Counted from the first letter of the stretch, positions 1,083 to 39,616 are shown. The stretch is DNA of 39,992 bases from a virus (IMGVR_UViG_2875722834_000002:1-39992), one strand, 5' to 3'. A program made the numbers and translations. The notes: generated by a model from the sequence alone, not told the origin.

Positions 1083-1355
1083 TTAAATGAGCCTTTGTTT
1101 ATGGGTTCTGACCCTTTCCCACTCAGCACGCCCTTCTTCTCGCCTTTTGTCTATGTATTCCGCAAGATCCTGAATATTGATGCAACGTTTTGCTTTTTGT
1201 GATGTGCCGATGCGATATGTTGGAACGGGCAACTTACAAGCGTTTGCTTTTGCTTCTGCCGTGGCTGGACTCATGCCAAAGTACTTTTGGCTAACTGCTG
1301 AGAGTTCAATGTTAGGGGTATTGAATTCAGCCATCAGTAAAAACAAGGTGTTCAT
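1083..1355 (-). CDS. PrtN-family / excisionase-like small DNA-binding protein (putative)
   Basis: Internal start MNTLFLLMAEF (codon 1353-1355) preceded by GGAGA RBS; about 90 aa; resembles pyocin-activator PrtN-like phage proteins; last gene of the leftward early operon. Confidence 0.5.
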   Translation of the reverse strand: MNTLFLLMAEFNTPNIELSAVSQKYFGMSPATAEAKANACKLPVPTYRIGTSQKAKRCINIQDLAEYIDKRREEGRAEWERVRTHKQRLI

Positions 1356-2707: not shown

Positions 2708-3066
2708 TTCTTATTCTCCGGTGCTTTTGGCATTACTGCCCAGTGAGTGATATTGACGTTTTCAAGGTCCCCGACCTGAAATGTCCACTGCCATTCTCCG
2801 GTTTCTTTTTGTCCCCAGGTGTACCAGAGAGAACGCCAGCCAATTAGCCAGCCTTCTCCGTTAGCATCAAATAACAGAACACTTTCATTTGCTGGTGGCA
2901 GTTCAGCTGACACTGGTATTATTTTGTTTTCCAGTGCCGTACATTTAGCTTCAAGCGCATCGAATTTACGTACCAGGTACTCAGCATTTGTTTCGTTCAC
3001 TTTCAGATCTCGCGGTACACATTTCCCGCGAAGAAACCCTTCCATTTCGAAAACATTCATGCGCAT
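2704..3066 (-). CDS. DUF551-like phage protein (YfdS-like)
   Basis: C-terminal Trp-rich region ...GEGWLIGWRSLWYTWGQ...ITHWAVMPKAPE resembles DUF551; 120 aa, same size and position as CPS-53 YfdS. Confidence 0.55.
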   Translation of the reverse strand: MRMNVFEMEGFLRGKCVPRDLKVNETNAEYLVRKFDALEAKCTALENKIIPVSAELPPANESVLLFDANGEGWLIGWRSLWYTWGQKETGEWQWTFQVGDLENVNITHWAVMPKAPENKK

Positions 3067-3620
3067 TTGCGTAACTCCGATAACTCGTTAAAACGTTCCA
3101 TAAACATCCCGTAGGCATGGCCTGGTGACAGTGGAATAACTTTGAACATCTCTGTCGCCGGGATACCTTCCAGTACAGGCCAGAAAGAGCCATCATCAAG
3201 CCCGAGATCGCGGCGTTCGGTTGCCAGCATAATGAGATCGGCATATTTCACTGGCGTGCTCATAACAGGAGGTAACCCGTATTTCTCACGGATTACGGCG
3301 TCTATTTTTTCTTCCATCCGTTTATAGTCAGGAAGAAGGCGTTTCAGTGGTGCGGGGATGTCCTGGCAATATGCTTCTGTTGCATCATGCATTAACGCTT
3401 CAAAAGCAAATTCCTGCGGTACCAGCTGGCTGCAAAGCACCGCATGTTGGGCGACGCTGTAGAAGTGTGAAAGATGTCCTGCAAAGCGACAGATATTTGA
3501 AAGGGAAACCGCGACATCGTTAATAACGATGTCGTCTTTATTTATCCTGTCATAATAAAAATGCTTCCCGGAAAAAGTTTTAATAAATGACATTTTATTC
3601 TCCACGTATATGCGCTGCAC
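3057..3620 (-). CDS. HD-domain 5'-deoxynucleotidase (YfdR-like)
   Basis: HD phosphohydrolase signature (H...HD...D) in ...FAGHLSHFYSVAQHAV...ALMHDATEAYCQDIP...; order and size match CPS-53 yfdR. Confidence 0.7.
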   Translation of the reverse strand: MQRIYVENKMSFIKTFSGKHFYYDRINKDDIVINDVAVSLSNICRFAGHLSHFYSVAQHAVLCSQLVPQEFAFEALMHDATEAYCQDIPAPLKRLLPDYKRMEEKIDAVIREKYGLPPVMSTPVKYADLIMLATERRDLGLDDGSFWPVLEGIPATEMFKVIPLSPGHAYGMFMERFNELSELRKCA

Positions 3621-3720: not shown

Positions 3721-4545
3721 TCAGGCGGTGAAAGTACCAATAAAGGTTTCTACTTTGCTGTCTTTAAATTTCTCAACAAGCAGATCACGAAATTCGTTAG
3801 CCATTTCTTCCTGCACCGCTTCCAGCTGAATAATGCGCAGAACCAGTACAGGACGATCGCCAGTGATAATGCTGAGGCGTAATTTAAACGGACGTTCTTT
3901 AAGGCCTTCAGACGGAACGCATTTAAATTCAAATGCCACTGGCATAATGTCTTTGGTCTTCGCTTCGACAGACTCCATCAGGGAGCGTTTGCCGCTGAAG
4001 TCATTATCTTCAAAATCAGCGGTCTGGTTTGCTTCAATCGTGATTTTACGGACTGCCGCAGCCGCTTTTGTTGCCTGAATGGCGTCACCATTCGCATCAA
4101 AGCCCACAAGGTAGTCGGCCCAGTCTTCAATCCATTCTGCCAGTGACTTCTGGGAGTTACGCTCGCCGTTAACAGACAACAGAGCAGAGAACGGTGCTGT
4201 CTTTTTCAGTTTGAGAGTGGCGGTGTTATCTGCGTGACCTGGTTCATCAATAGTACCCAGGTTAAGCACACTAACGGCACGCATATTATCAGCATCGATA
4301 AAGCAGCGGGTGCCTTCATCTGCAAGATCTTTAGAATAACGGGTAAAATCATCGATGCTGGCAGTGGAAAGCGCGCCACGGAAACGGAAGCGATTTAAAT
4401 TAAATTTTTCCAGATCATGAATGCGGAAATTCTCAGGCAATGCCACAGCATCGGCACCAATCTTACTGATAATTTCATTAACACCCTGAGCAGAAATAAG
4501 GGCATGGATTTGATTAATTGCGGTTGAGTCTAAGTTCTGAGACAT
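3721..4545 (-). CDS. YfdQ-like protein (DUF2303)
   Basis: 274 aa, N-terminus MSQNLDS..., positioned between the YfdP-like and YfdR-like genes as in CPS-53. Confidence 0.6.
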
Positions 4546-7544: not shown

Positions 7545-8486
7545 ATGAGCACTAAATTAACCGGCTATGTATGGGATGGTTGCGCTGCATCAGGCATGAA
7601 ATTATCCAGCGTGGCAATTATGGCCCGCCTGGCTGATTTCAGTAATGACGAAGGTGTGTGCTGGCCATCAATTGAAACTATTGCCCGTCAGATTGGCGCG
7701 GGGATGAGTACCGTCAGGACGGCTATCGCACGGCTGGAAGCAGAAGGCTGGTTAACGCGTAAGGCGCGTCGCCAGGGTAACCGCAATGCGTCGAATGTTT
7801 ATCAGCTTAACGTTGCGAAGCTTCAGGCAGCGGCATTTTCTCAACTGTCAGATTCTGACCCGTCAAAATCTGACGCATCAAAATCTGACCCGTCAAAATT
7901 TGATGCGTCGAAATCTGGCAAAAAAGCGGGTTTTCACCCGTCAGAATCTGGCGGGGATCCGTCAGTAAAATCAAAACATGATCCGTCAGATAAAAAACCT
8001 TCTCGTCCGGACGCTTCGCAACCGGACACGCAGACGGATGAACAGGATTTTTTAACTCGCCATCCTGATGCGGTTGTATTCAGCCCTAAAAAGCGCCAGT
8101 GGGGAACGCAGGATGATTTGACCTGCGCACAGTGGCTCTGGAAAAAAATCATCGCCCTGTACGAGCAGGCTGCCGAATGTGACGGCGAGGTGGTTCGTCC
8201 CAAAGAACCGAACTGGACAGCCTGGGCAAACGAAATTCGCCTGATGTGTGTGCAGGATGGTCGTACTCACAAACAAATCTGCGAGATGTACAGCCGCGTC
8301 AGCCGCGATCCGTTCTGGTGCCGTAACGTGCTCAGCCCGTCGAAGTTGCGGGAAAAATGGGATGAGCTTTCCCTGCGCTTATCACCGTCCGTCAGCACGT
8401 ACACCGAAAAACGCGAAGACCCGTACTTCAAATCCAGTTACGACAACGTGGACTACAGCCAGATCCCGGCAGGATTCAGGGGGTGA
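7545..8486 (+). CDS. Replication initiation / replisome-organiser protein (lambda O-like, N-terminal winged HTH)
   Basis: N-terminal HTH-like region, internal Ser/Asp/Lys-rich linker encoded by iteron repeats, located after the cro/YdaT-like genes. Confidence 0.7.
   Translation: MSTKLTGYVWDGCAASGMKLSSVAIMARLADFSNDEGVCWPSIETIARQIGAGMSTVRTAIARLEAEGWLTRKARRQGNRNASNVYQLNVAKLQAAAFSQLSDSDPSKSDASKSDPSKFDASKSGKKAGFHPSESGGDPSVKSKHDPSDKKPSRPDASQPDTQTDEQDFLTRHPDAVVFSPKKRQWGTQDDLTCAQWLWKKIIALYEQAAECDGEVVRPKEPNWTAWANEIRLMCVQDGRTHKQICEMYSRVSRDPFWCRNVLSPSKLREKWDELSLRLSPSVSTYTEKREDPYFKSSYDNVDYSQIPAGFRG
7847..7998 (+). repeat. Iteron array inside the O-like gene (putative phage replication origin)
   Basis: About 8 imperfect copies of a 15-bp unit cGTCAaAATCTGAC(c/g) (e.g. 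7861-7875, 7876-7890, 7891-7905), ending in ccgtcagataaaaaac. Confidence 0.6.
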
Positions 8487-8977: not shown

Positions 8978-9630
8978 TGAGTAATAAATATTGCCAGGCG
9001 CTGGTGGAACTGCGGAACAAACCAGCCCATGAACTGAAGGAAGTGGGCGATCAGTGGCGCACGCCGGACAACATTTTCTGGGGAATTAACACCCTGTTTG
9101 GCCCGTTTGTTCTGGATCTGTTTACTGACGGTGATAACGCCAAATGTGCCGCGTATTACACGGCGGAAGATAACGCGCTGGCGCATGACTGGTCAGAACG
9201 TCTTGCGGAGCTTAAAGGTGCTGCCTTTGGTAATCCCCCATACAGCCGCGCCAGTCAGCATGAGGGGCAATACATCACCGGCATGCGTTACATCATGAAA
9301 CATGCCAGTGCCATGCGTGATAAGGGCGGGCGCTATGTTTTCCTGATCAAAGCTGCCACCAGCGAAGTGTGGTGGCCGGAAGATGCGGACCATATTGCTT
9401 TTATTCGCGGGCGTATTGGTTTTGAACTGCCTGCCTGGTTTATCCCGAAGGACGAGAAGCAGGTGCCGACAGGAGCGTTCTTCGCTGGTGCTATTGCTGT
9501 TTTCGACAAGACCTGGAAGGGACCGGCAATCAGCTACATCGGGCGCGATGAACTTGAGGCATGTGGTGAGGCCTTTCTGGCGCAGGTTCGCCAGCAGGCA
9601 GAAAAACTTGTCAGGGAGATGGCGGCATGA
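8977..9630 (+). CDS. Phage Dam-like DNA N6-adenine methyltransferase
   Basis: Start at 8977 (TAATG overlap with the upstream stop); catalytic NPPY motif in ...GAAFGNPPYSRASQ... Confidence 0.75.
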   Translation: MSNKYCQALVELRNKPAHELKEVGDQWRTPDNIFWGINTLFGPFVLDLFTDGDNAKCAAYYTAEDNALAHDWSERLAELKGAAFGNPPYSRASQHEGQYITGMRYIMKHASAMRDKGGRYVFLIKAATSEVWWPEDADHIAFIRGRIGFELPAWFIPKDEKQVPTGAFFAGAIAVFDKTWKGPAISYIGRDELEACGEAFLAQVRQQAEKLVREMAA

Positions 9631-12178: not shown

Positions 12179-12931
12179 ATGAACCTTGAAGCCTTACCAA
12201 AATATTACTCCCCAAAATCTCCAAAATTGAGCGATGACGCACCGGCGACAGGCTCAGGTGGTTTAACGATTACGGATGTGATGGCTGCGCAGGGGATGGT
12301 GCAGTCGAAAGCACCGCTTGGGTTTGCCTTATTCCTGGCAAAAGTTGGTGTTCAGGATCCTCAATTTGCGATTGAAGGTCTGCTCAATTACGCGATGGCA
12401 CTGGATAACCCGACATTGAACAAATTGAGTGAAGAAACCCGGTTACAGATCATCCCTTACCTTGTGAATTTTGCCTTTGCTGATTATTCCAGGTCTGCGG
12501 CAAGTAAGGCTCGCTGTGAGCATTGTGCTGGTACTGGATTTCATAATGTATTGCGCGAAGTGGTGAAACACTCCAGAAGCGGGGAATCTGTTATCAAGGA
12601 AGAGTGGGTGAAGGAACTATGTCAGCATTGTCATGGTAAGGGAGAAGTCAGCACAGCGTGCAGAGGGTGTAAGGGTAAAGGTATTGTCCTGGATGAAAAA
12701 AGGACCCGGCTTCATGGCACGCCTGTTTATAAGATTTGTGGGCGTTGCAATGGAAACCGGTTTAGCCGTTTACCAACCACACTGGCGCGGCATCATGTCC
12801 AGAAGCTGGTACCAGACCTGACGGATTATCAGTGGTACAAAGGATATGCAGATGTCATTGATAAACTGGTTACAAAGTGCTGGCAGGAAGAAGCATATGC
12901 AGAGATACAATTGAGAAAGGTGACAAGATAA
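12179..12931 (+). CDS. Late-gene antiterminator Q
   Basis: ATG at 12179 with GGAG RBS; zinc-binding CxxC...CxxC cluster (CEHCAGTG...CQHCHGKG); sits directly upstream of a promoter/terminator pair and the lysis cassette. Confidence 0.7.
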   Translation: MNLEALPKYYSPKSPKLSDDAPATGSGGLTITDVMAAQGMVQSKAPLGFALFLAKVGVQDPQFAIEGLLNYAMALDNPTLNKLSEETRLQIIPYLVNFAFADYSRSAASKARCEHCAGTGFHNVLREVVKHSRSGESVIKEEWVKELCQHCHGKGEVSTACRGCKGKGIVLDEKRTRLHGTPVYKICGRCNGNRFSRLPTTLARHHVQKLVPDLTDYQWYKGYADVIDKLVTKCWQEEAYAEIQLRKVTR

Positions 12932-13537: not shown

Positions 13538-14590
13538 ATGAAAAATACTGTAAAAATAAACAGTGTTGATTTAATCAACGCTGATTGCCTGCATTTTATT
13601 CAGTCCTTGCCTGATGATTCCATTGATCTGATTGTTACCGATCCGCCGTACTTCAAAGTGAAGCCCAACGGCTGGGACAATCAGTGGAAAGGGGACGAAG
13701 ATTACCTGAAGTGGCTGGACTACTGTCTGGCCCAGTTCTGGCGGGTACTGAAACCAGCCGGAAGCCTTTACCTGTTCTGTGGACATCGCCTCGCATCTGA
13801 TATCGAGATCATGATGCGTGAACGTTTCAACGTGCTTAACCATATCATCTGGGCGAAGCCGTCCGGACGATGGAACGGGTGTAATAAAGAAAGCCTGCGG
13901 GCATATTTCCCCGCTACAGAGCGCGTTCTGTTTGCTGAACATTACCAGGGGCCATATCGCGGCAAAAGTGACGGCTATGCGGCAAAAGAAAGGGAACTCA
14001 AACAGCACATAATGGCACCGCTGATATCGTATTTCAGGGATGCTCGTGCCGAACTGGGTATAACGGCAAAACAAATTGCCGAAGCCACAGGTAAGAAAAA
14101 TATGGTTTCCCACTGGTTTGGTGCCAGTCAGTGGCAGTTGCCGAATGAGGCTGACTATCGGAAGTTACAGGCACTGTTTTCCCGTATAGCGGCAGAGAAG
14201 TTTCAGGAACAACAACTGGAACAACCACACCACCAGCTGGTGGCATCTTATGATTCACTGAATCGCAAATATTCTGAATTGCTGGATGAGTTTAAATCTC
14301 TCCGGCGCTATTTCTCCGTATCAGTCTCCGTGCCTTATACCGATGTCTGGACGCATAAGCCCGTTCAGTTCTACCCGGGTAAACATCCGTGCGAGAAACC
14401 GGCGGATATGCTCCGGCAAATAATCAATGCCAGTAGTCGACCTGGTGATCTGGTTGCTGATTTCTTTATGGGATCCGGTTCCACAATAAAAGCAGCAATG
14501 GCGCTGGGGCGTCGGGCGTTAGGTGTTGAACTTGAGTCAGAGCGGTTTAATCAGACGGTGAAAGAGGTAAGTGAACTGGTGGGGAAATAA
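13538..14590 (+). CDS. Orphan DNA methyltransferase (DPPY motif; N6-adenine or N4-cytosine class)
   Basis: Catalytic motif IVTDPPYF near the N-terminus and an AdoMet-binding-like FFMGSGST near the C-terminus; no adjacent restriction endonuclease. Confidence 0.8.
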   Translation: MKNTVKINSVDLINADCLHFIQSLPDDSIDLIVTDPPYFKVKPNGWDNQWKGDEDYLKWLDYCLAQFWRVLKPAGSLYLFCGHRLASDIEIMMRERFNVLNHIIWAKPSGRWNGCNKESLRAYFPATERVLFAEHYQGPYRGKSDGYAAKERELKQHIMAPLISYFRDARAELGITAKQIAEATGKKNMVSHWFGASQWQLPNEADYRKLQALFSRIAAEKFQEQQLEQPHHQLVASYDSLNRKYSELLDEFKSLRRYFSVSVSVPYTDVWTHKPVQFYPGKHPCEKPADMLRQIINASSRPGDLVADFFMGSGSTIKAAMALGRRALGVELESERFNQTVKEVSELVGK

Positions 14591-32423: not shown

Positions 32424-33468
32424 ATTTCAGCGCCCGACGCTGGCAGAAAATATCAGTATGCTCCGTAACGATTTATTCGCCAGGCTGGACGTCAGCGACA
32501 CGCTCCGGCGCATGGATGAAGACGTGCGGGCAAAGGTGTATGCGGCGGCGCTGCATACGGTTTACGGGTACATCGATTATCTGGCAATGAATATGCTGCC
32601 TGACCTGTGCGATGAGTCCTGGCTGGCGCGACATGCTGCGATGAAACGGTGTCCGCGCAAGGGGGCCACGGCTGCCAGCGGGTATATGCGCTGGGAAGGT
32701 GTCAGCGATGGCCTGAAGGTGACCGCCGGGAGTGTTATTCAGCGCGATGACCTGGTGCAGTACACGGCAACTGCCGATGCAACCAGCTCCGGTGGTGTCC
32801 TGCGCGTGCCGATCGCCTGCTCAAGTGCAGGCGCGGTCGGTAACGCTGACGACGGTACGTCATTAATCCTGGTCACGCCGGTGAATGGTCTGCCGTCTTC
32901 CGGCGTGGCAGATACACTGACAGGTGGATTTGATACTGAAGAGCTGGAAACGTGGCGCGCCCGCGTCATTGAGCGGTATTACTGGACGCCTCAGGGCGGG
33001 GCTGACGGGGACTATGTCGTCTGGGCTAAAGAAGTTCCCGGCATTACCCGCGCATGGACATACCGCCACTGGATGGGAACGGGGACTGTCGGTGTGATGA
33101 TTGCCGGCAGTGACCTGATTAACCCCATTCCGGAAGAATCAACGGAAACGGCGGCAAGACAACACATTGAGCCACTGGCCCCGGTGGCAGGCTCTGATTT
33201 GTATGTATTCAGGCCGGTGGCGCATAAAGTGGATTTTCATATCCGCGTGACGCCGGACACACCGGAAATACGGGCTGCCATTACCGCGGAGTTGCGTTCG
33301 TTCCTGCTGCGTGATGGTTATCCGCAGGGAGAACTGAAGGTGTCGCGTATCAGTGAGGCGATTTCCGGTGCGAACGGGGAATACAGCCATCAGTTGCTTG
33401 CACCGGCAGACAATATCTCCATTGCAAAAAATGAACTGGCGGTACTGGGGACGATTTCATGGACGTGA
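32410..33468 (+). CDS. Baseplate J-like protein (Mu gp47-like)
   Basis: 352 aa in the conserved position. Confidence 0.7.
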
Positions 33469-34043
33469 CAAACGATGATTACATCCGTCTGTTGTCGGCA
33501 CTGTTGCCCCCCGGTCCGGCGTGGTCAGCCAGCGATCCGGCGATTGCCGGTGCGGCACCGTCATTAACCCGCGTTCATCAGCGTGCGGATGCCCTGATGC
33601 GGGAGCTGGATCCGCGCACCACCACCGAACTGATAAATCGCTGGGAGCGTCTGTGCGGCCTGCCGGATGAATGTATTCCCGCAGGGACACAGACCCTTCG
33701 CCAGCGTCAGCAACGACTGGATGCGAAGGTTAACCTGGCGGGCGGCATCAATGAGGATTTTTACCTTGCACAGCTTGCTGCCCTGGGCAGACCAGACGCC
33801 ACCATCACTCGATACGACAAAAGCACGTTCACCTGCTCATCGGCCTGTACTGACGCGGTGAATGCGCCGGAATGGCGGTATTACTGGCAGGTCAACATGC
33901 CAGCCGCCACCAACACCACCTGGATGACATGTGGCGATCCCTGTGATTCCGCACTGCGTATCTGGGGCGACACCGTTGTCGAGTGCGTGCTTAACAAACT
34001 CTGCCCTTCGCATACCTACGTAATTTTTAAATATCCGGAGTAA
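33459..34043 (+). CDS. Tail protein DUF2313 (Mu gp48 / YmfQ-like)
   Basis: 194 aa preceding the tail fibre gene, as ymfQ does in e14. Confidence 0.65.
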
Positions 34044-34046
34044 TCC

Positions 34047-34967
34047 ATGCATCGCATAGACACGAAAACCGCGCAGAAGGATAAGTTCGGCGCGGGTAAG
34101 AACGGTTTTACCCGTGGTAACCCCCAGACCGGCACGCCTGCCACCGATCTGGATGATGACTACTTTGACATGTTGCAGGAAGAACTTTGTAGCGTTGTTG
34201 AGGCATCCGGTGCCAGTCTGGAGAAGGCGCGGCACGACCAGCTGCTTACCGCGCTTCGTGCGCTGCTGTTAAGCCGCAAGAATCCGTTTGGCGATATCAA
34301 ATCGGATGGCACGGTGAAAACGGCTCTCGAAAACCTTGGAATTGAAAGGGTTGAGCAGCTCAATAACGAAACGAGAATTTATACCGGGGCCGATGGCTCT
34401 TATCTTTCCGCCAGAGGCGATGGGCAATTTGGTATTTTCGATCCATCACGGGGATTTATTCCTCTGGGTGTTCAGCAGGGTGGGACGGGAGCCAGAGATG
34501 CAGAAGGGGCAAGGGACAAACTTGGTTTGGGCCGGATTGAGCAGCGAGATGGTGAAACGGTAATTTATTGCGACGATAAAAAAACTGCATATTTTACAGC
34601 ACGCGAAGATAATCAGTGGGGGCTTTTTGACGGCACAAAATTCGTACCATTGGGGGTTCAGCAAGGCGGTACTGGTGCGAACGATGCAGCCACGGCCAGA
34701 AATAATCTGGGGATGGGCAATGCAGCAACAGGCCATGTAAGAACTGGCAAGGTCTCACGGTCCGGTGATAAATTATTTGATACCCCGTTCCCCAACGAAT
34801 GTACTGCCATTGCATTCGGCGTAATGATTGGCCAAGCCTGGATGTTCTCTCCCTATGTCACGTACCTTAATAAGACGGGTTTTGGTTTTGATGGTCGGTG
34901 TTGGAGTGGCACTAGTGTTCTCCAACCATTCGCTGAAGATGTTTATTACATTGCCTGGGGAAAATAA
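34047..34967 (+). CDS. Side tail fibre protein
   Basis: Conserved N-terminal region then a variable C-terminus with internal repeats ([11 protein letters not shown]...LG twice). Confidence 0.8.
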
Positions 34968-34968
34968 G

Positions 34969-35385
34969 ATGACATATCAATACAGCGCTAAGAACAACGC
35001 ATTTTTTCGTACTGCTGAGCTGGCGAATTATGAGGATGCGGGTTGGGATCTATCTGACCTGGTTGACGTAACCACTGAGCAATTTACTGCGTTCACTCAG
35101 GATCGAACCGTTGATGGATTAGTGCGCATCGCAGGCAATGACGGCATGCCAACATGGGGTGAAATCCCCCCACGTACACCAGAAGAACTTGAAGCAGATG
35201 CGGTGTCCAAAAAAACATCCCTTATCGCATATGCAACACATATTATTGACCCACTTAAGGATGCTTTTGATGGTGACTATATTGATGATGCAGATAAGCC
35301 AAAACTCACGGCGTGGCAAAAATATCGCTATGCACTGACAAAGGTTGACCCAGTCAACCCTGTCTGGCCTGAGATGCCAATATAG
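34969..35385 (+). CDS. Tail fibre assembly chaperone (Tfa)
   Basis: ATG at 34969 two bases after the fibre stop; 138 aa. Confidence 0.75.
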   Translation: MTYQYSAKNNAFFRTAELANYEDAGWDLSDLVDVTTEQFTAFTQDRTVDGLVRIAGNDGMPTWGEIPPRTPEELEADAVSKKTSLIAYATHIIDPLKDAFDGDYIDDADKPKLTAWQKYRYALTKVDPVNPVWPEMPI

Positions 35386-35454
35386 GAACGTTTATGAAAA
35401 TGCAGAAATAGCGCGCAAATGGCATCGTTCCTGTTTTTGTCAGGAGGAGCAATC

Positions 35455-36012
35455 ATGCTTATTGGCTATGTTCGCGTATCAACAAATGACCAGAACACCG
35501 ATCTACAACGTAATGCGTTGAACTGTGCAGGATGTGAGCTGATTTTTGAAGATAAGATCAGCGGCACTAAGTCCGACCGACCGGGACTGAAAAAACTGCT
35601 CAGAACATTATCAGCAGGTGACACTCTGGTAGTCTGGAAACTGGACCGACTGGGGCGCAGTATGCGGCATCTTGTCGTGCTGGTGGAGGAGTTGCGCGAA
35701 CGTGGCGTTAATTTTCGCAGCCTGACGGATGCTATTGATACCAGCACACCAATGGGACGCTTTTTCTTTCATGTGATGGGTGCCCTGGCTGAAATGGAGC
35801 GAGAGCTTATTGTCGAACGTACTAGGGCGGGCTTTGCCGCAGCACGACAAGAAGGGAGGAATGGTGGGCGAAAGCCAAAGCTGACAGTAGAACAATGGGA
35901 GCAGGCTGGCAGGTTGATTGAATCGGGAATATATCAGCAGCAAGTCGCACTGATTTATGATCTGGGTATTTCAACGGTGTATAAAAAATTCCCTGTAGCA
36001 AGTAAACCATAA
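35455..36012 (+). CDS. Serine-recombinase DNA invertase (Pin/Gin/Hin/Cin family)
   Basis: ATG at 35455 with AGGAGG RBS; N-terminus MLIGYVRVSTNDQNTDLQ with the catalytic Ser; C-terminal HTH; 185 aa. Confidence 0.85.
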   Translation: MLIGYVRVSTNDQNTDLQRNALNCAGCELIFEDKISGTKSDRPGLKKLLRTLSAGDTLVVWKLDRLGRSMRHLVVLVEELRERGVNFRSLTDAIDTSTPMGRFFFHVMGALAEMERELIVERTRAGFAAARQEGRNGGRKPKLTVEQWEQAGRLIESGIYQQQVALIYDLGISTVYKKFPVASKP

Positions 36013-36038: not shown

Positions 36039-36734
36039 TTATGCACTATTTTTAGGTCTTGTAACCCGAGGTGGGAGTTGTTTGGTTATATGTTCAAGTG
36101 ATTTTTTGCCCAAGATAGTTCTTTGGACAAAACTTTCTATAGCTTCTAGCATTTGTTCGAACTCACTTTTATTCGGGCTCCAACTGCGATGTGCGGCGGC
36201 GTTTCCTGCATCAATTACAGAAGATATAACGCATGCCTCAGTGTCGCCTATGACTCCATCTTGTTTTAATTTTTCAACTTTTTCACCAAGCGGCAAACCG
36301 GGGTGAATTTGTAACAGTTCAGCAGTTCGATCAAAAATCGTCCGTAAACCGATGGACGAAAGGATGAAATGGTCAGAAGTATATGAAGAATACATTTCAT
36401 TAAATATTTGAAAGAGCTGACGATCAACTGATTCAAGCTTGGATAACCATATCGGAGCTTGAAATGTTTCAGCGGCAGGATAGGTAGTGATCATATCTAT
36501 AGGCGTTTCTACAAATTCACCATCACGATATTCGTGGGTAGTATGCTCACTGAAGTGTTCGTTGTGGTGATAGAAGACAGTATCACAGCCATTGCATTGG
36601 AGTAGGTGATGGTAATGGTACCCATAAACTGGATATTGGGAATCCTCCCAGCTAGTGGTTAGCTTCCCATGCACAGTGCAGTTACGTAACCCACCGCATG
36701 TAGGGCAAAGAGCCTTGAGTATTTCCTTTTTCAT
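36039..36734 (-). CDS. Zinc-ribbon protein with C-terminal DUF4145-like helical domain (candidate Abi/defence gene)
   Basis: N-terminal CPTCGG...C...CNGC zinc ribbon; C-terminal ...GEKVEKLKQDGVIGDTEACVISSVIDAGNAAAHRSW...FEQMLEAIESFVQRTI resembles DUF4145; AT-rich; own sigma70-like promoter. Confidence 0.6.
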   Translation of the reverse strand: MKKEILKALCPTCGGLRNCTVHGKLTTSWEDSQYPVYGYHYHHLLQCNGCDTVFYHHNEHFSEHTTHEYRDGEFVETPIDMITTYPAAETFQAPIWLSKLESVDRQLFQIFNEMYSSYTSDHFILSSIGLRTIFDRTAELLQIHPGLPLGEKVEKLKQDGVIGDTEACVISSVIDAGNAAAHRSWSPNKSEFEQMLEAIESFVQRTILGKKSLEHITKQLPPRVTRPKNSA

Positions 36735-37082
36735 AAAGTCTCTGATTCTATATGTAGGTTAAGACCACTATTAGCTATACGGACCTAATAATCAATCGTG
36801 TGCAGATACAAAAAAGCCCGTATAGCGGGATTTCATGTCACTAAGGGCCGCGGCTACTTTGCGTATCTTTTTTGTCTTCTCACCGTCTGGCCGGTATTTT
36901 GCTGAGACTGCTTATTTCCAGTTTTTACTAGTGCTGTACTGGTACTGCCCAATCATGATTGGTGGGGGACGGAGTTGAAACCGCAGCCACGTCGTATGCA
37001 AGAACGCGCTGCGGTTGGCTGGTGAACTTTCGATAGTGCGAGTATTGAATGATTTCCAGCCGTTACAGATTTTACGTGTTTA

Positions 37083-37331
37083 TTAGTGAACAAACCACTC
37101 GTCAGCAGATTCCCAGGTATCTTTCAGAGTCTCCTGAACAAAAGTTTTTGCAGAATCCTTATCTGCGGTGCGTGTAACAGAAAGGCCATCATTGCTGGTG
37201 GCTTTTACTAACACCTCAACATCGTCATAACGCTTACTGATGCGTCGGGTTAATTCTTCCTTTAACGCATCCACAGCACCGGTTGGCATTTTAGTCATTT
37301 TTTCTTTGGCTATGCAGATTTCAATACGCAT
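37083..37331 (-). CDS. dinI: DinI-family protein
   Basis: 82 aa, [11 protein letters not shown]...[16 protein letters not shown] matches the DinI family; two LexA boxes upstream. Confidence 0.8.
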
Positions 37332-37346
37332 AAAAGTCCCTCCATA

Positions 37347-37390
37347 CTGTGTTTGTATACAGTATTATTTTTAACTGTATGGATAAACAG
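37347..37390. promoter_or_regulatory. Two LexA (SOS) boxes in the dinI promoter region
   Basis: CTGT-N8-ACAG twice: ctgtgtttgtatacag (37347-37362) and ctgtatggataaacag (37375-37390). Confidence 0.65.
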
Positions 37391-37392
37391 TG

Positions 37393-38490
37393 TCAAGAGG
37401 TCTTATTTCTGCTCCTTTGGAGCTCTTCAAAACGATTATGTAAAGATTTCGGATACAGTTCGGTATATACCTGCCATAGCACGTTTAATGAACGATGCCC
37501 TGTAACCTGGGCGACTTCCTCAATACTAAAACCAGCCTCAAATAAGCGACTTGCCCCTTCTCTACGCAAATCATGGTATCGCAGATCCTTAATACCTAAT
37601 TTGCTTCTTACTCTCTGAAATCCCGCAGTAACAGAAGTGCTGTTATATGGAAAAATGAATTCCGATTTTTGGGGCTGTCGTTGGACGATATCCCAGGCTT
37701 CCCCAAGCAAGGCTACTTTCATGTGGTTGCCTTCCTTTTTGCGTGGATCTTTCCTGTCTCTTACGAGTATAGATTTTTGTTCCTGGTCGAGATCTTCCCA
37801 TCGTAACCGGCATACTTCTCCGATTCGCATACAGGACCATACAGAAAATTTGAGGATATCAACGAACGGAATTTTTGAGCATTTATGAGTAGATCGTTGT
37901 TGAAGGCCTGCAATGAGCATGTCCAGTTCATCAGATGCTGGTCTACGATTACGACGGTTTGATTTACCAATCAAACCAAGTTTAAGTAGATATGGGCGAG
38001 CGCTTATCGCCGGGTTTGATGTGTAATTAATTCCGTATACAGGTTTGGCCGCATCCAGAACACTGCCAAGATAACTAACATCGTGGCTGACTGTTGCAGG
38101 ACCTGCACCAGCGTTGTTTCTTAGCCTGCAATGTTCAATTACGTCATTTTCTGTCAGTTCAGATAGTTTGATCGCGGAGATGTCACTATCCATAAGCAGT
38201 TCCAGCACATATCTTTTAGTACGGCCTGCTTTACCTCCGGCATTTGGGTCATTTAAATATTTGTGTAGTAAGTCACGGACTGTAAGTCCGTCAACTGCAT
38301 TTGATGATGGAATGCCATATAGATCTAATTCCATCACTTTCTGTGTGCCCCATGTTTTGGCATGAGCATGTTTAGGGAATGTTTTGCTTTCCCTGTAAGT
38401 GATAACACCTTTTTCTTTGATAATCACATTACAGCGATAGCGTGGTGTGCCATCGGATTTTAGTCGTTTCTCTATGTTATAGTACGCCAT
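37393..38490 (-). CDS. int: Tyrosine integrase (dusA-associated type)
   Basis: 365 aa; C-terminal catalytic region with HDLRR, GHRS and a Tyr in ...WQVYTELY; divergent from dusA. Confidence 0.85.
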   Translation of the reverse strand: MAYYNIEKRLKSDGTPRYRCNVIIKEKGVITYRESKTFPKHAHAKTWGTQKVMELDLYGIPSSNAVDGLTVRDLLHKYLNDPNAGGKAGRTKRYVLELLMDSDISAIKLSELTENDVIEHCRLRNNAGAGPATVSHDVSYLGSVLDAAKPVYGINYTSNPAISARPYLLKLGLIGKSNRRNRRPASDELDMLIAGLQQRSTHKCSKIPFVDILKFSVWSCMRIGEVCRLRWEDLDQEQKSILVRDRKDPRKKEGNHMKVALLGEAWDIVQRQPQKSEFIFPYNSTSVTAGFQRVRSKLGIKDLRYHDLRREGASRLFEAGFSIEEVAQVTGHRSLNVLWQVYTELYPKSLHNRFEELQRSRNKTS

Positions 38491-38578
38491 TACACGACCT
38501 CGTTATTTCGGGTTCCCATAAAACGTGGGAACCTGTGCGGGAACCTAACGCGAGAAAAATAGCCTGAAATGTTCAAAA

Positions 38579-39616
38579 ATGCACGATAATCATGAAACAA
38601 AAAAAATTAATCAAACCAGCGTGATGCCTGAAAAAACTGGTGTTTACTGGAATTCTCGGTTTAGCATTGCTCCTATGCTCGACTGGACGGACAGACATTG
38701 CCGCTATTTCTTGCGTCTGCTTTCCCGCAATACGTTGCTGTATACCGAAATGGTGACCACAGGGGCGATTATTCACGGTAAAGGTGATTATCTGGCGTAC
38801 AGTGAAGAAGAACATCCGGTAGCGTTGCAACTGGGCGGTAGCGATCCGGCGGCGCTGGCGCAGTGTGCAAAGCTGGCAGAAGCGCGCGGATATGATGAGA
38901 TCAACCTGAATGTCGGCTGCCCGTCTGACCGGGTGCAGAACGGCATGTTTGGTGCGTGTCTGATGGGTAATGCGCAGCTGGTTGCCGACTGCGTGAAAGC
39001 GATGCGCGATGTGGTGTCGATTCCGGTGACGGTGAAAACGCGTATTGGCATCGACGACCAGGACAGCTATGAATTTCTCTGCGATTTCATCAATACCGTT
39101 TCCGGCAATGGCGAGTGTGAGATGTTCATCATCCACGCACGTAAAGCCTGGCTTTCGGGGTTAAGCCCGAAAGAAAACCGTGAAATCCCGCCGCTCGATT
39201 ATCCGCGTGTGTATCAACTGAAGCGTGACTTTCCGCATCTGACAATGTCGATTAACGGTGGTATCAAGTCGCTGGAAGAGGCCAAAGCACACCTGCAACA
39301 TATGGATGGCGTGATGGTCGGGCGCGAGGCGTATCAGAATCCGGGTATTCTGGCGGCGGTAGACCGGGAGATCTTTGGTTCCTCGGATACCGATGCCGAT
39401 CCGGTGGCGGTAGTGCGCGCCATGTATCCGTACATTGAGCGTGAACTCAGCCAGGGGACGTATCTCGGCCATATTACCCGGCATATGTTGGGCTTGTTCC
39501 AGGGTATTCCTGGCGCGCGGCAGTGGCGGCGTTATTTAAGTGAAAATGCCCATAAAGCGGGTGCAGACATTAATGTGCTGGAACACGCGCTCAAACTGGT
39601 GGCGGATAAGCGTTAA
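38579..39616 (+). CDS. dusA: tRNA-dihydrouridine synthase A; the true start may be the internal ATG at 38624, and the 5' end may be prophage-derived
   Basis: Full-length Dus family protein matching enterobacterial DusA over essentially its whole length. Confidence 0.9.

Follow-up and report, generated by a model that had tools for sequence, protein, structure and literature searches.

The right end of a 39,992-nucleotide stretch of viral DNA (IMGVR_UViG_2875722834_000002; hereafter, the window) is very likely the attR junction of a ~39-kb Escherichia coli prophage that uses a dusA-specific tyrosine integrase, and the GGGAACC/GGTTCCC cluster found there very likely represents the P-arm arm-type sites of a lambda-like attP. 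The system is a member of a known family of dusA-specific integrases, and the same integrase and attP are present in named GenBank phages. That a dedicated integrase family targets the 5' end of dusA, as the initial annotation of this DNA stated, is documented in the literature (PMC4482086, PMC8409611).

The dusA junction and its att sites

The integrase gene int (37393..38490, minus strand; a 365-amino-acid ORF with a match to Pfam PF00589) and dusA (38579-39616, plus strand, with pspG next) are separated by 88 bp (38491-38578), and both the sequence and the ORF list place the two genes in divergent orientation. The initial annotation had the distance and the opposite strands right, but described int as ending near dusA; since the genes are divergent, the end of int nearest to dusA is its 5' end, with the start codon. 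Immediately downstream of int is a gene for a DinI-like protein (37083-37331, minus strand; PF06183), near which two perfect matches to the LexA-box pattern CTGT-N8-ACAG (37347-37362 and 37375-37390) overlap a TTGACA/AAAAAT promoter. A third is found at 13548-13563, at the start of the ORF at 13538-14590; ~0.5 such patterns in total are expected per window.

To place the crossover, we performed a four-way comparison of the window (attR), the empty dusA of K-12 (attB), the attL of related lysogens, and the attP of the free phages mEp460 and Lys8385Vzw. The dusA site is empty in K-12 BW25113, and aligning the window with this unoccupied allele, a check proposed in the initial annotation, located the crossover at a sharp homology break at 38674/38675. 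Similarity to K-12 is absent upstream of ~38574 and begins a few bases before the dusA ATG. Codons 1 to 32 of dusA (38579..38674, plus strand) match K-12 at 77/96 nucleotides (80%), with 22/32 amino acids identical and 10 residues differing; an 8/8 identity block, ATGCTCGA, follows codon 32 (38675..38682, plus strand), and from there to the stop codon 933/934 nucleotides are identical (99.9%; 38683..39616, plus strand), this being the host-derived remainder of the gene. The initial annotation had staked its reading on an empty allele not being identical through the whole 5' region, and the break against K-12 is present; its other stake, that attL/attR direct repeats should not turn up elsewhere, held as well. 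It had also put the phage-derived portion at roughly the first 15 to 30 codons; the phage origin holds, as both the homology break and the attP of free phages indicate, and the count is slightly higher, at 32 codons. The same 32 codons form the inner part of the attP P arm and are present in mEp460 and Lys8385Vzw.

The block ATGCTCGA is the only uninterrupted identity common to attP, attB, attL, and attR, and it is bounded by mismatches at 38674 (attR versus attB) and at 38683 (attR versus attL); strand exchange is therefore placed within ATGCTCGA, in dusA codons 33 to 35. Ten phage records match the window from 37393 onward and stop at ~38679-38684, and in the three-copy records of SKA5, Lys8385Vzw, and mEp460 the match stops exactly at 38682. 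Beyond this position, mEp460 and Lys8385Vzw continue with the sequence that adjoins attL on its right, so that their attP is precisely the one predicted from attL and attR. In the Lys8385Vzw attP record (L005, ~3780-3800) the 8-bp core is present as a tandem duplicate (ATGCTCGAATGCTCGA), unlike in mEp460; this may be an artifact of prophage ends being joined into a circular record, or it may be a real variant.

A search for the attL core inside the window returned the attR copy alone, and attL was therefore taken from the related lysogens HH107 and FAM21845. Over the leftmost 5.2 kb of the prophage, identity to the window is 100% in HH107 and 99.6% in FAM21845, and HH107 is 98.6% identical to the right 20 kb of the window. 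In both relatives a 105-bp fragment of the dusA 5' end, identical to K-12, lies just left of the prophage and is followed by ATGCTCGA and then by phage DNA. Their attL core sits outside the window, 141-148 bp left of its first position (which corresponds to position 9001 of locus L003), in agreement with the earlier statement that attL is not visible in the window, and the proposed search for the same core upstream of the window thus recovered ATGCTCGA in both relatives. The attR copy of the 21-bp semiconserved att repeat, ATGCTCGACTGGACGGACAGA (38675..38695, plus strand), matches the attL copy, ATGCTCGATAGGATGTACCGT, at 15/21 positions, with the first 8 identical; we likened it to the repeat of the family by the published description of the latter.

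Together, these comparisons establish the junction, the crossover interval, the replaced codons, and the in-frame repair of the gene. In this model of integration, attP brings the diverged dusA codons 1 to 32 and a promoter region, and after them the 8-bp crossover segment ATGCTCGA; exchange at the identical 8 bp of the host dusA strands the host 5' end at attL and, at attR, joins the phage copy to the remainder of the gene in the correct frame. Because the phage copy is fused in frame at attR, dusA stays intact. Excision would regenerate an attB reading ...GCACCAATGCTCGACTGG..., and the predicted products are a repaired attB of GCACCAATGCTCGACTGGAC and an attP of GCTCCTATGCTCGATAGGAT.

The divergent int-dusA control region is supplied by the phage, and its homology to the region upstream of dusA in K-12 is limited to a weak AAAATA block ~20 nucleotides before the ATG; in relatives a TATTTT/AAAATA element is conserved 17 nucleotides from the dusA start codon. 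A scan of 37000-38800 for sigma-70 promoters and terminators gave no hit in the int-dusA spacer, all hits falling at the dinI promoter or, in one case, within dinI. The fragment upstream of int acts as a constitutive promoter in a related element, which also supplies a dusA promoter (PMC8409611); for this reason the promoters must be sought in the spacer, which must hold the replacement dusA promoter and probably holds the int promoter as well.

At the prophage end opposite int lies an rdfN-like gene of the PrtN family (1083..1355, minus strand; Pfam PF11112, E value of 3.9e-23), a predicted excision directionality factor; HH107 carries an identical gene, and its RefSeq annotation concurs. In phages YeP1 and EKP1 a small ORF, attP, and int follow one another in a single direction. 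The PrtN-family gene of EKP1 directly abuts attP, and YeP1 has an unannotated small ORF at that place, the PrtN-family annotation being confined to EKP1. Given this gene order, integration separates the two genes, so that int has to be driven from a promoter of its own within the P arm. By analogy with the element described in PMC8409611, the RdfN-like factor, encoded at the far end of the prophage, would direct excision.

Several other genes of the prophage are recorded here. A gene with a Panacea/SocA-like antitoxin domain (1-582) overlaps by 4 nucleotides an ORF (579-1049) that has no Pfam match; the two (1-1049) lie between attL and the PrtN-like gene, on the strand opposite to the early operon, and look like a toxin-antitoxin or defense cargo pair at the attL end. 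At that spot mEp460, YeP1, and EKP1 have other genes or none. Near the other end, a Gin/Pin-type serine invertase gene (35419-36012; PF00239 and PF02796) follows the tail-fiber and assembly genes; no inverted repeats of at least 18 bp were found around the tail-fiber invertase in 33300-35500. Next in order, on the strand opposite to the invertase, is a gene for a DUF4145 protein (36039-36734), likely an accessory gene.

Repeats on both attP arms and the integrase N-terminal domain

The initial annotation noticed GGGAACC as a direct repeat with its inverse, GGTTCCC, at 38510-38555, and all three copies are confirmed, within 38511-38545. The int-proximal candidate arm-type site (38511..38517, minus strand) is inverted relative to the other two, so that GGGAACC is read on the minus strand; these two (38527..38533 and 38539..38545, both plus strand) form a tandem pair with a 12-bp period. 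The distances from the three sites to the start codons are 20-56 bp for int and 33-68 bp for dusA. On the other arm, P', there is a second tandem pair, GGGAGCC/GGGAACC, with an 11-bp period, 43 nucleotides past the core (L003 8903-8920; the fragment carrying these far-arm sites is GTGGGAGCCTATTGGGAACCTG), and mEp460 keeps this pair although its flanking sequence diverges. The resulting attP spans ~240 bp, with three sites on the int side, at 130-164 bp from the core, and two on the other side, at 43-61 bp; read from int, it has the inverted site and the first two direct sites, passes through the dusA promoter region and the 32 dusA codons to the core, and then has an IHF-like site and the other two direct sites. 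The IHF-like site is a single 12/13 match to WATCAANNNNTTR, a consensus match only, which occupies the same attP position in three lineages (0.22 matches are expected per 280 bp) and is separated from the core by 21-22 bp and from the first repeat of the far arm by 9-10 bp. No match to WATCAANNNNTTR with at most one mismatch was found on the P arm.

This layout on both arms is conserved in relatives. Among 78 genomic loci, we scored tandem 7-mers with a period of 11-12 and at least four G+C located between -80 and -15 of int; exact tandem 7-mers were present in 51/78 loci, whereas control windows had them in 4/1168 cases and shuffles in 0/780, and when one mismatch was allowed the count rose to 67/78, against a background of 5%. 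An inverted copy is found at the same position in 17-20 of the 78 relatives, and it always has the motif of its own lineage. Yersinia phage YeP1 carries two copies of AGCACCCC on the far arm and, across the core, two more together with an inverted GGGGTGCT beside int, which is the identical arrangement of two plus one and two; phage EKP1 follows the YeP1-like pattern with the motif GTACACC, and in Klebsiella phage Kp4882-1 and Shewanella phage M16-3 the two ends of the record carry motifs that match. The motifs fall into at least eight classes, which include GGTTCCC, GCACCCC, GTACACC, GGACACC, GGATCCC, GGTATCC, GTACCCC, and GTGCCCC. EKP1 (L087) is labeled as having an Elizabethkingia host; the sequences of its attP core and dusA-like arm are of enterobacterial type, and the N-terminal domain of its integrase is identical to that of the Klebsiella locus L018, so the stated Bacteroidota host looks doubtful.

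The integrase itself has the features of the tyrosine recombinases. Its PF00589 match covers residues 188-346 (E value of 8.4e-21), and R222, H306, R309, H332, and Y342, the catalytic R..H-x-x-R..H..Y set, are invariant in 17 homologues. Structural matches include Tn1549 Int, lambda Int, XerA, and Cre, and alignment of the model with full-length lambda Int (1z1b and 5j0n) runs from end to end, over ~357-371 columns. Residues 1-65 (38296..38490, minus strand) form a predicted arm-binding N-terminal domain, which neither a Pfam scan of the integrase nor a profile search against PDB sequences recognized. Its structure is predicted with high confidence as antiparallel strands at residues 2-10, 16-26, and 29-38, followed by a helix at 41-58. 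Three strands and a helix are the topology of the lambda and Tn916 arm-binding domains, and in the model the N-terminal domain thus has the predicted size and topology of known arm-binding domains.

The repeat motif co-varies with this domain in a cassette-like manner. We compared residues 1-40 at matched identity of residues 71-360, and in pairs of integrases with the same motif versus different motifs, pairs which are not phylogenetically independent, the identities were 0.85 versus 0.67, 0.89 versus 0.68, and 0.98 versus 0.77. The clearest instance comes from two Rosenbergiella integrases (L014 and L015) which are 96% identical outside the N-terminal domain and 60% identical within it, and whose repeats differ (GGACACC versus AGCACCCC). 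The block of divergent DNA between these two loci consists of exactly the repeats and the N-terminal domain codons, with conserved sequence on both sides (2800-3330 of each), which indicates an exchange of arm sites and arm-binding domain as one cassette. A milder case of divergence in N-terminal domain and repeats is seen in Xenorhabdus (L026 versus L016 and L019-L021). The co-variation and the L014/L015 swap lend indirect support to the predicted specific binding of the arm sites by the N-terminal domain.

The initial annotation had offered the repeats as candidate arm sites or int promoter elements. Arm-type sites bound by the N-terminal domain of Int are the most likely reading and the better of the two, given the far-arm pair, the lineage-specific layout, and the co-variation with the N-terminal domain; a promoter role may come in addition, the sites being 20-56 bp upstream of the int start in a spacer with no sigma-70 consensus. 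As arm-type sites, the repeats would give a lambda-like layout in which the N-terminal beta-sheet domain of Int occupies the arm sites and the C-terminal domains bind and cut the core. Int would presumably bridge arm and core into an intasome as in lambda, with IHF bending the far arm.

Other readings of the repeats

We weighed four other explanations of the cluster. It is improbable that the repeats are operators or promoter elements of the int/dusA region, bound by a phage repressor or a host factor and having no role in recombination. Their distances from the two start codons do put them in promoter territory, and a tandem pair with an inverted copy resembles operator layouts; however, such a reading leaves unexplained the far-side tandem pair, which in five lineages lies in a different transcription unit, and it explains neither why the motif tracks the Int N-terminal domain nor why the two are exchanged together as a block. 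The repressor/cro region, moreover, has no copies of the motif, and the spacer has no sigma-70 consensus. A dual role, with arm sites that also serve as an operator for Int, is possible, and we count it as part of the best explanation. We rate lower still the proposal that the PrtN-like RdfN, and not Int, binds the repeats. Directionality factors bind tandem repeats in att arms, and co-variation with the motif could follow from co-inheritance of the factor with Int; the window has a PrtN-family gene, and one is needed for excision in the related element (PMC8409611). The motif is nevertheless at the outer edge of both arms. In lambda-type systems, sites for directionality factors usually occupy a single arm, in the interval that separates the arm-type sites from the core. 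The mosaic block of L014 and L015 also speaks against RdfN as the ligand, since it holds the repeats and the Int N-terminal domain codons only and its flanks are conserved, as does the N-terminal domain, which has the size and topology of known arm-binding domains.

The inverted pair at 38511-38518 and 38526-38533 could form a perfect 8-bp stem with a 7-nucleotide loop, and the centroid structure is indeed this hairpin (-12.6 kcal/mol), so that a structure in the int 5' untranslated region or in single-stranded DNA, acting on RNA stability, translation, or termination, was considered. We regard it as highly improbable: the folding energy is ordinary (z = -0.27, with 76/200 shuffles folding as well), most relatives lack the inverted copy yet keep the tandem pair, there is no U-tract, and L007 and L008 break the stem while still fitting the consensus GGYYCCC. 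The change in L006 (GGTCCCC/GGGGACC) was examined as compensatory pairing and rejected, because L007 and L008 lose the symmetry but keep the GGYYCCC consensus. That the cluster is a chance repeat has a negligible probability. The 7-mer is not enriched window-wide, with 5 copies against 4.9 expected; 3 of the 5 nevertheless fall within 35 bp, any 7-mer occurring three times within 40 bp was reproduced in only 1 of 20,000 shuffles of the 88-bp spacer, and the position is conserved across the 78 loci against a background of 0.3%. The other two copies of GGGAACC in the window are inside structural genes.

The window as a whole has three places where a 7-mer occurs three times in 40 bp, and 30 shuffled windows had 0-2 each. 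One of the other two such clusters (7863-7899) consists of ATTTTGA with a 15-bp period inside the ORF at 7545-8486, whose HH107 counterpart is annotated as a helix-turn-helix protein; the other (12197-12227) consists of ATTTTGG at 12197, 12212, and 12221, at the start of an antitermination-protein-like ORF. Either cluster could serve as iterons of an origin or as regulatory repeats.

Family, prevalence, and significance

The DAI (dusA-associated integrase) family is known from Alpha-, Beta-, and Gammaproteobacteria, including Escherichia (PMC4482086), and its elements have 21-bp att repeats, a replacement 5' end, and excision observed by PCR (Farrugia et al. 2015, PMC4482086). The present system resembles these elements in having int beside and divergent from the dusA 5' end, a new 5' end, and 21-bp attL/attR repeats inside dusA; nothing essential sets it apart, and it is an E. 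coli prophage member of the family. The text of PMC4482086 does not mention arm-type sites (the word "arm" has 0 occurrences), and no description of arm sites for the dusA integrase family was found in the literature searched, most subscription journals being outside its scope. Thus, the arm-site anatomy and the lineage-specific pairs of motif and N-terminal domain appear to be undescribed in that literature, and they are what would be expected for a lambda-type integrase.

In IMEVchUSA3, a PrtN-like RdfN is the sole directionality factor and Pint is constitutive (Durand et al. 2021, PMC8409611); this element gives dusA a new promoter and an N terminus of the same length, as demonstrated with a lacZ fusion (PMC8409611). 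IMEVchUSA3 and other Vibrio dusA elements share the target and the kind of Int with the prophage described here, and the Vibrio Int homologues in our set are ~55% identical to the Int of the window. IMEVchUSA3, however, is an IncC-mobilizable island whose rdfN is driven by AcaCD, whereas here the element is a tailed prophage with rdfN at the end of a leftward early operon. Closest are the phages mEp460, Lys8385Vzw (Stx1), phiSTEC1575-Stx2k, SKA5, 1720a-02, and PhiR40_1, whose Int is 98-99% identical (99.2% in Lys8385Vzw) and whose attP P arm, in the records examined, is almost identical and includes the three repeats, whereas the rest of their genomes differ. Lys8385Vzw and Stx2k prophages have been reported as integrated in dusA (PMC7946995). 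The int-dinI module is found beside a lambda-type tail in strain VG48B2 and with a contractile-tail gene set in the window, as well as in mEp460, Lys8385Vzw, and EKP1; since the backbones around the same module differ between VG48B2 and the window, the int-dinI-attP module moves between phage backbones.

Among complete E. coli genomes, the dusA part of the junction was matched in 5426/5426 and the int side as well in 741 (13.7%, ~1 in 7). Our set of Int homologues comprised 80 gammaproteobacterial genomes with 52-98% identity, and in 56 of the 80 dusA lies divergently upstream at a near-equal distance; 5 of the remaining 24 have too little upstream sequence. The ~19 homologues that are not beside dusA (L027, L031-L033, L036-L044, L050, L058, L062, L067, L070, and L080), from Xenorhabdus, Serratia, Providencia, Raoultella, and Shewanella, among others, keep the tandem repeats and have other flanks, and many retain a CGTGCAT block resembling a remnant of the dusA start codon. 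Rearrangement or the use of other targets may account for them. Because a clear second arm could not be identified in these loci, they were left out as additional attP examples.

Relative to lambda Int and its attP (P1, P2, P'1-3, and H'), the likenesses are a three-domain integrase, repeats on both arms that are unrelated to the core, an attP of ~240 bp, and a candidate IHF site between the core and the P' sites. In contrast to lambda, the N-terminal domain has no detectable sequence similarity to its counterpart, the target is part of a coding sequence, and the P arm also serves as a working gene start, promoter included; the genes for the excision factor and for int flank attP on opposite sides, and hence lie at opposite prophage ends, and the arm sites are two direct plus one inverted on one arm and two direct on the other. 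Int binding, IHF use, the role of the directionality factor, and the overlap with promoters are inferred.

The position of the arm sites between two divergent start codons means that Int occupancy probably affects the int promoter, the dusA promoter, or both. The integrase of phage P4 is autoregulated via Int sites overlapping its own promoter, and its attP is directly upstream of int; the arm-type sites described here likewise overlap the int control region, a likeness that serves as a lead for a regulatory role only. Int bound at the arm sites would, by this speculation, also damp transcription of int, dusA, or both, and we call it speculation because no promoter could be placed. A broader proposal, that the arm sites form one operator common to the divergent promoters of int and the replacement dusA and that at least eight pairs of N-terminal domain and motif are exchanged as cassettes, is tentative, and we hold it to be rather unlikely. 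If it were true, the level of Int would govern how much Int is made and how strongly lysogens express a host tRNA-modification enzyme, and the pairs of N-terminal domain and motif would be readable as a recognition code for an AP2-like fold, reusable for orthogonal integrases.

The prophage is a clean, fully resolved case of a known mechanism, insertion into the start of an essential-looking gene, and the gene is not inactivated because the phage brings a spare copy of the gene start. Since the same int-attP module serves Shiga-toxin phages, the exact att coordinates should help prophage annotation and typing. What is added here to the picture of the family is the anatomy of attP, with candidate arm sites on both arms, an IHF-like site, and motif/N-terminal domain cassettes that differ between lineages, and these cassettes are a possible set of orthogonal arm specificities for integrase engineering.
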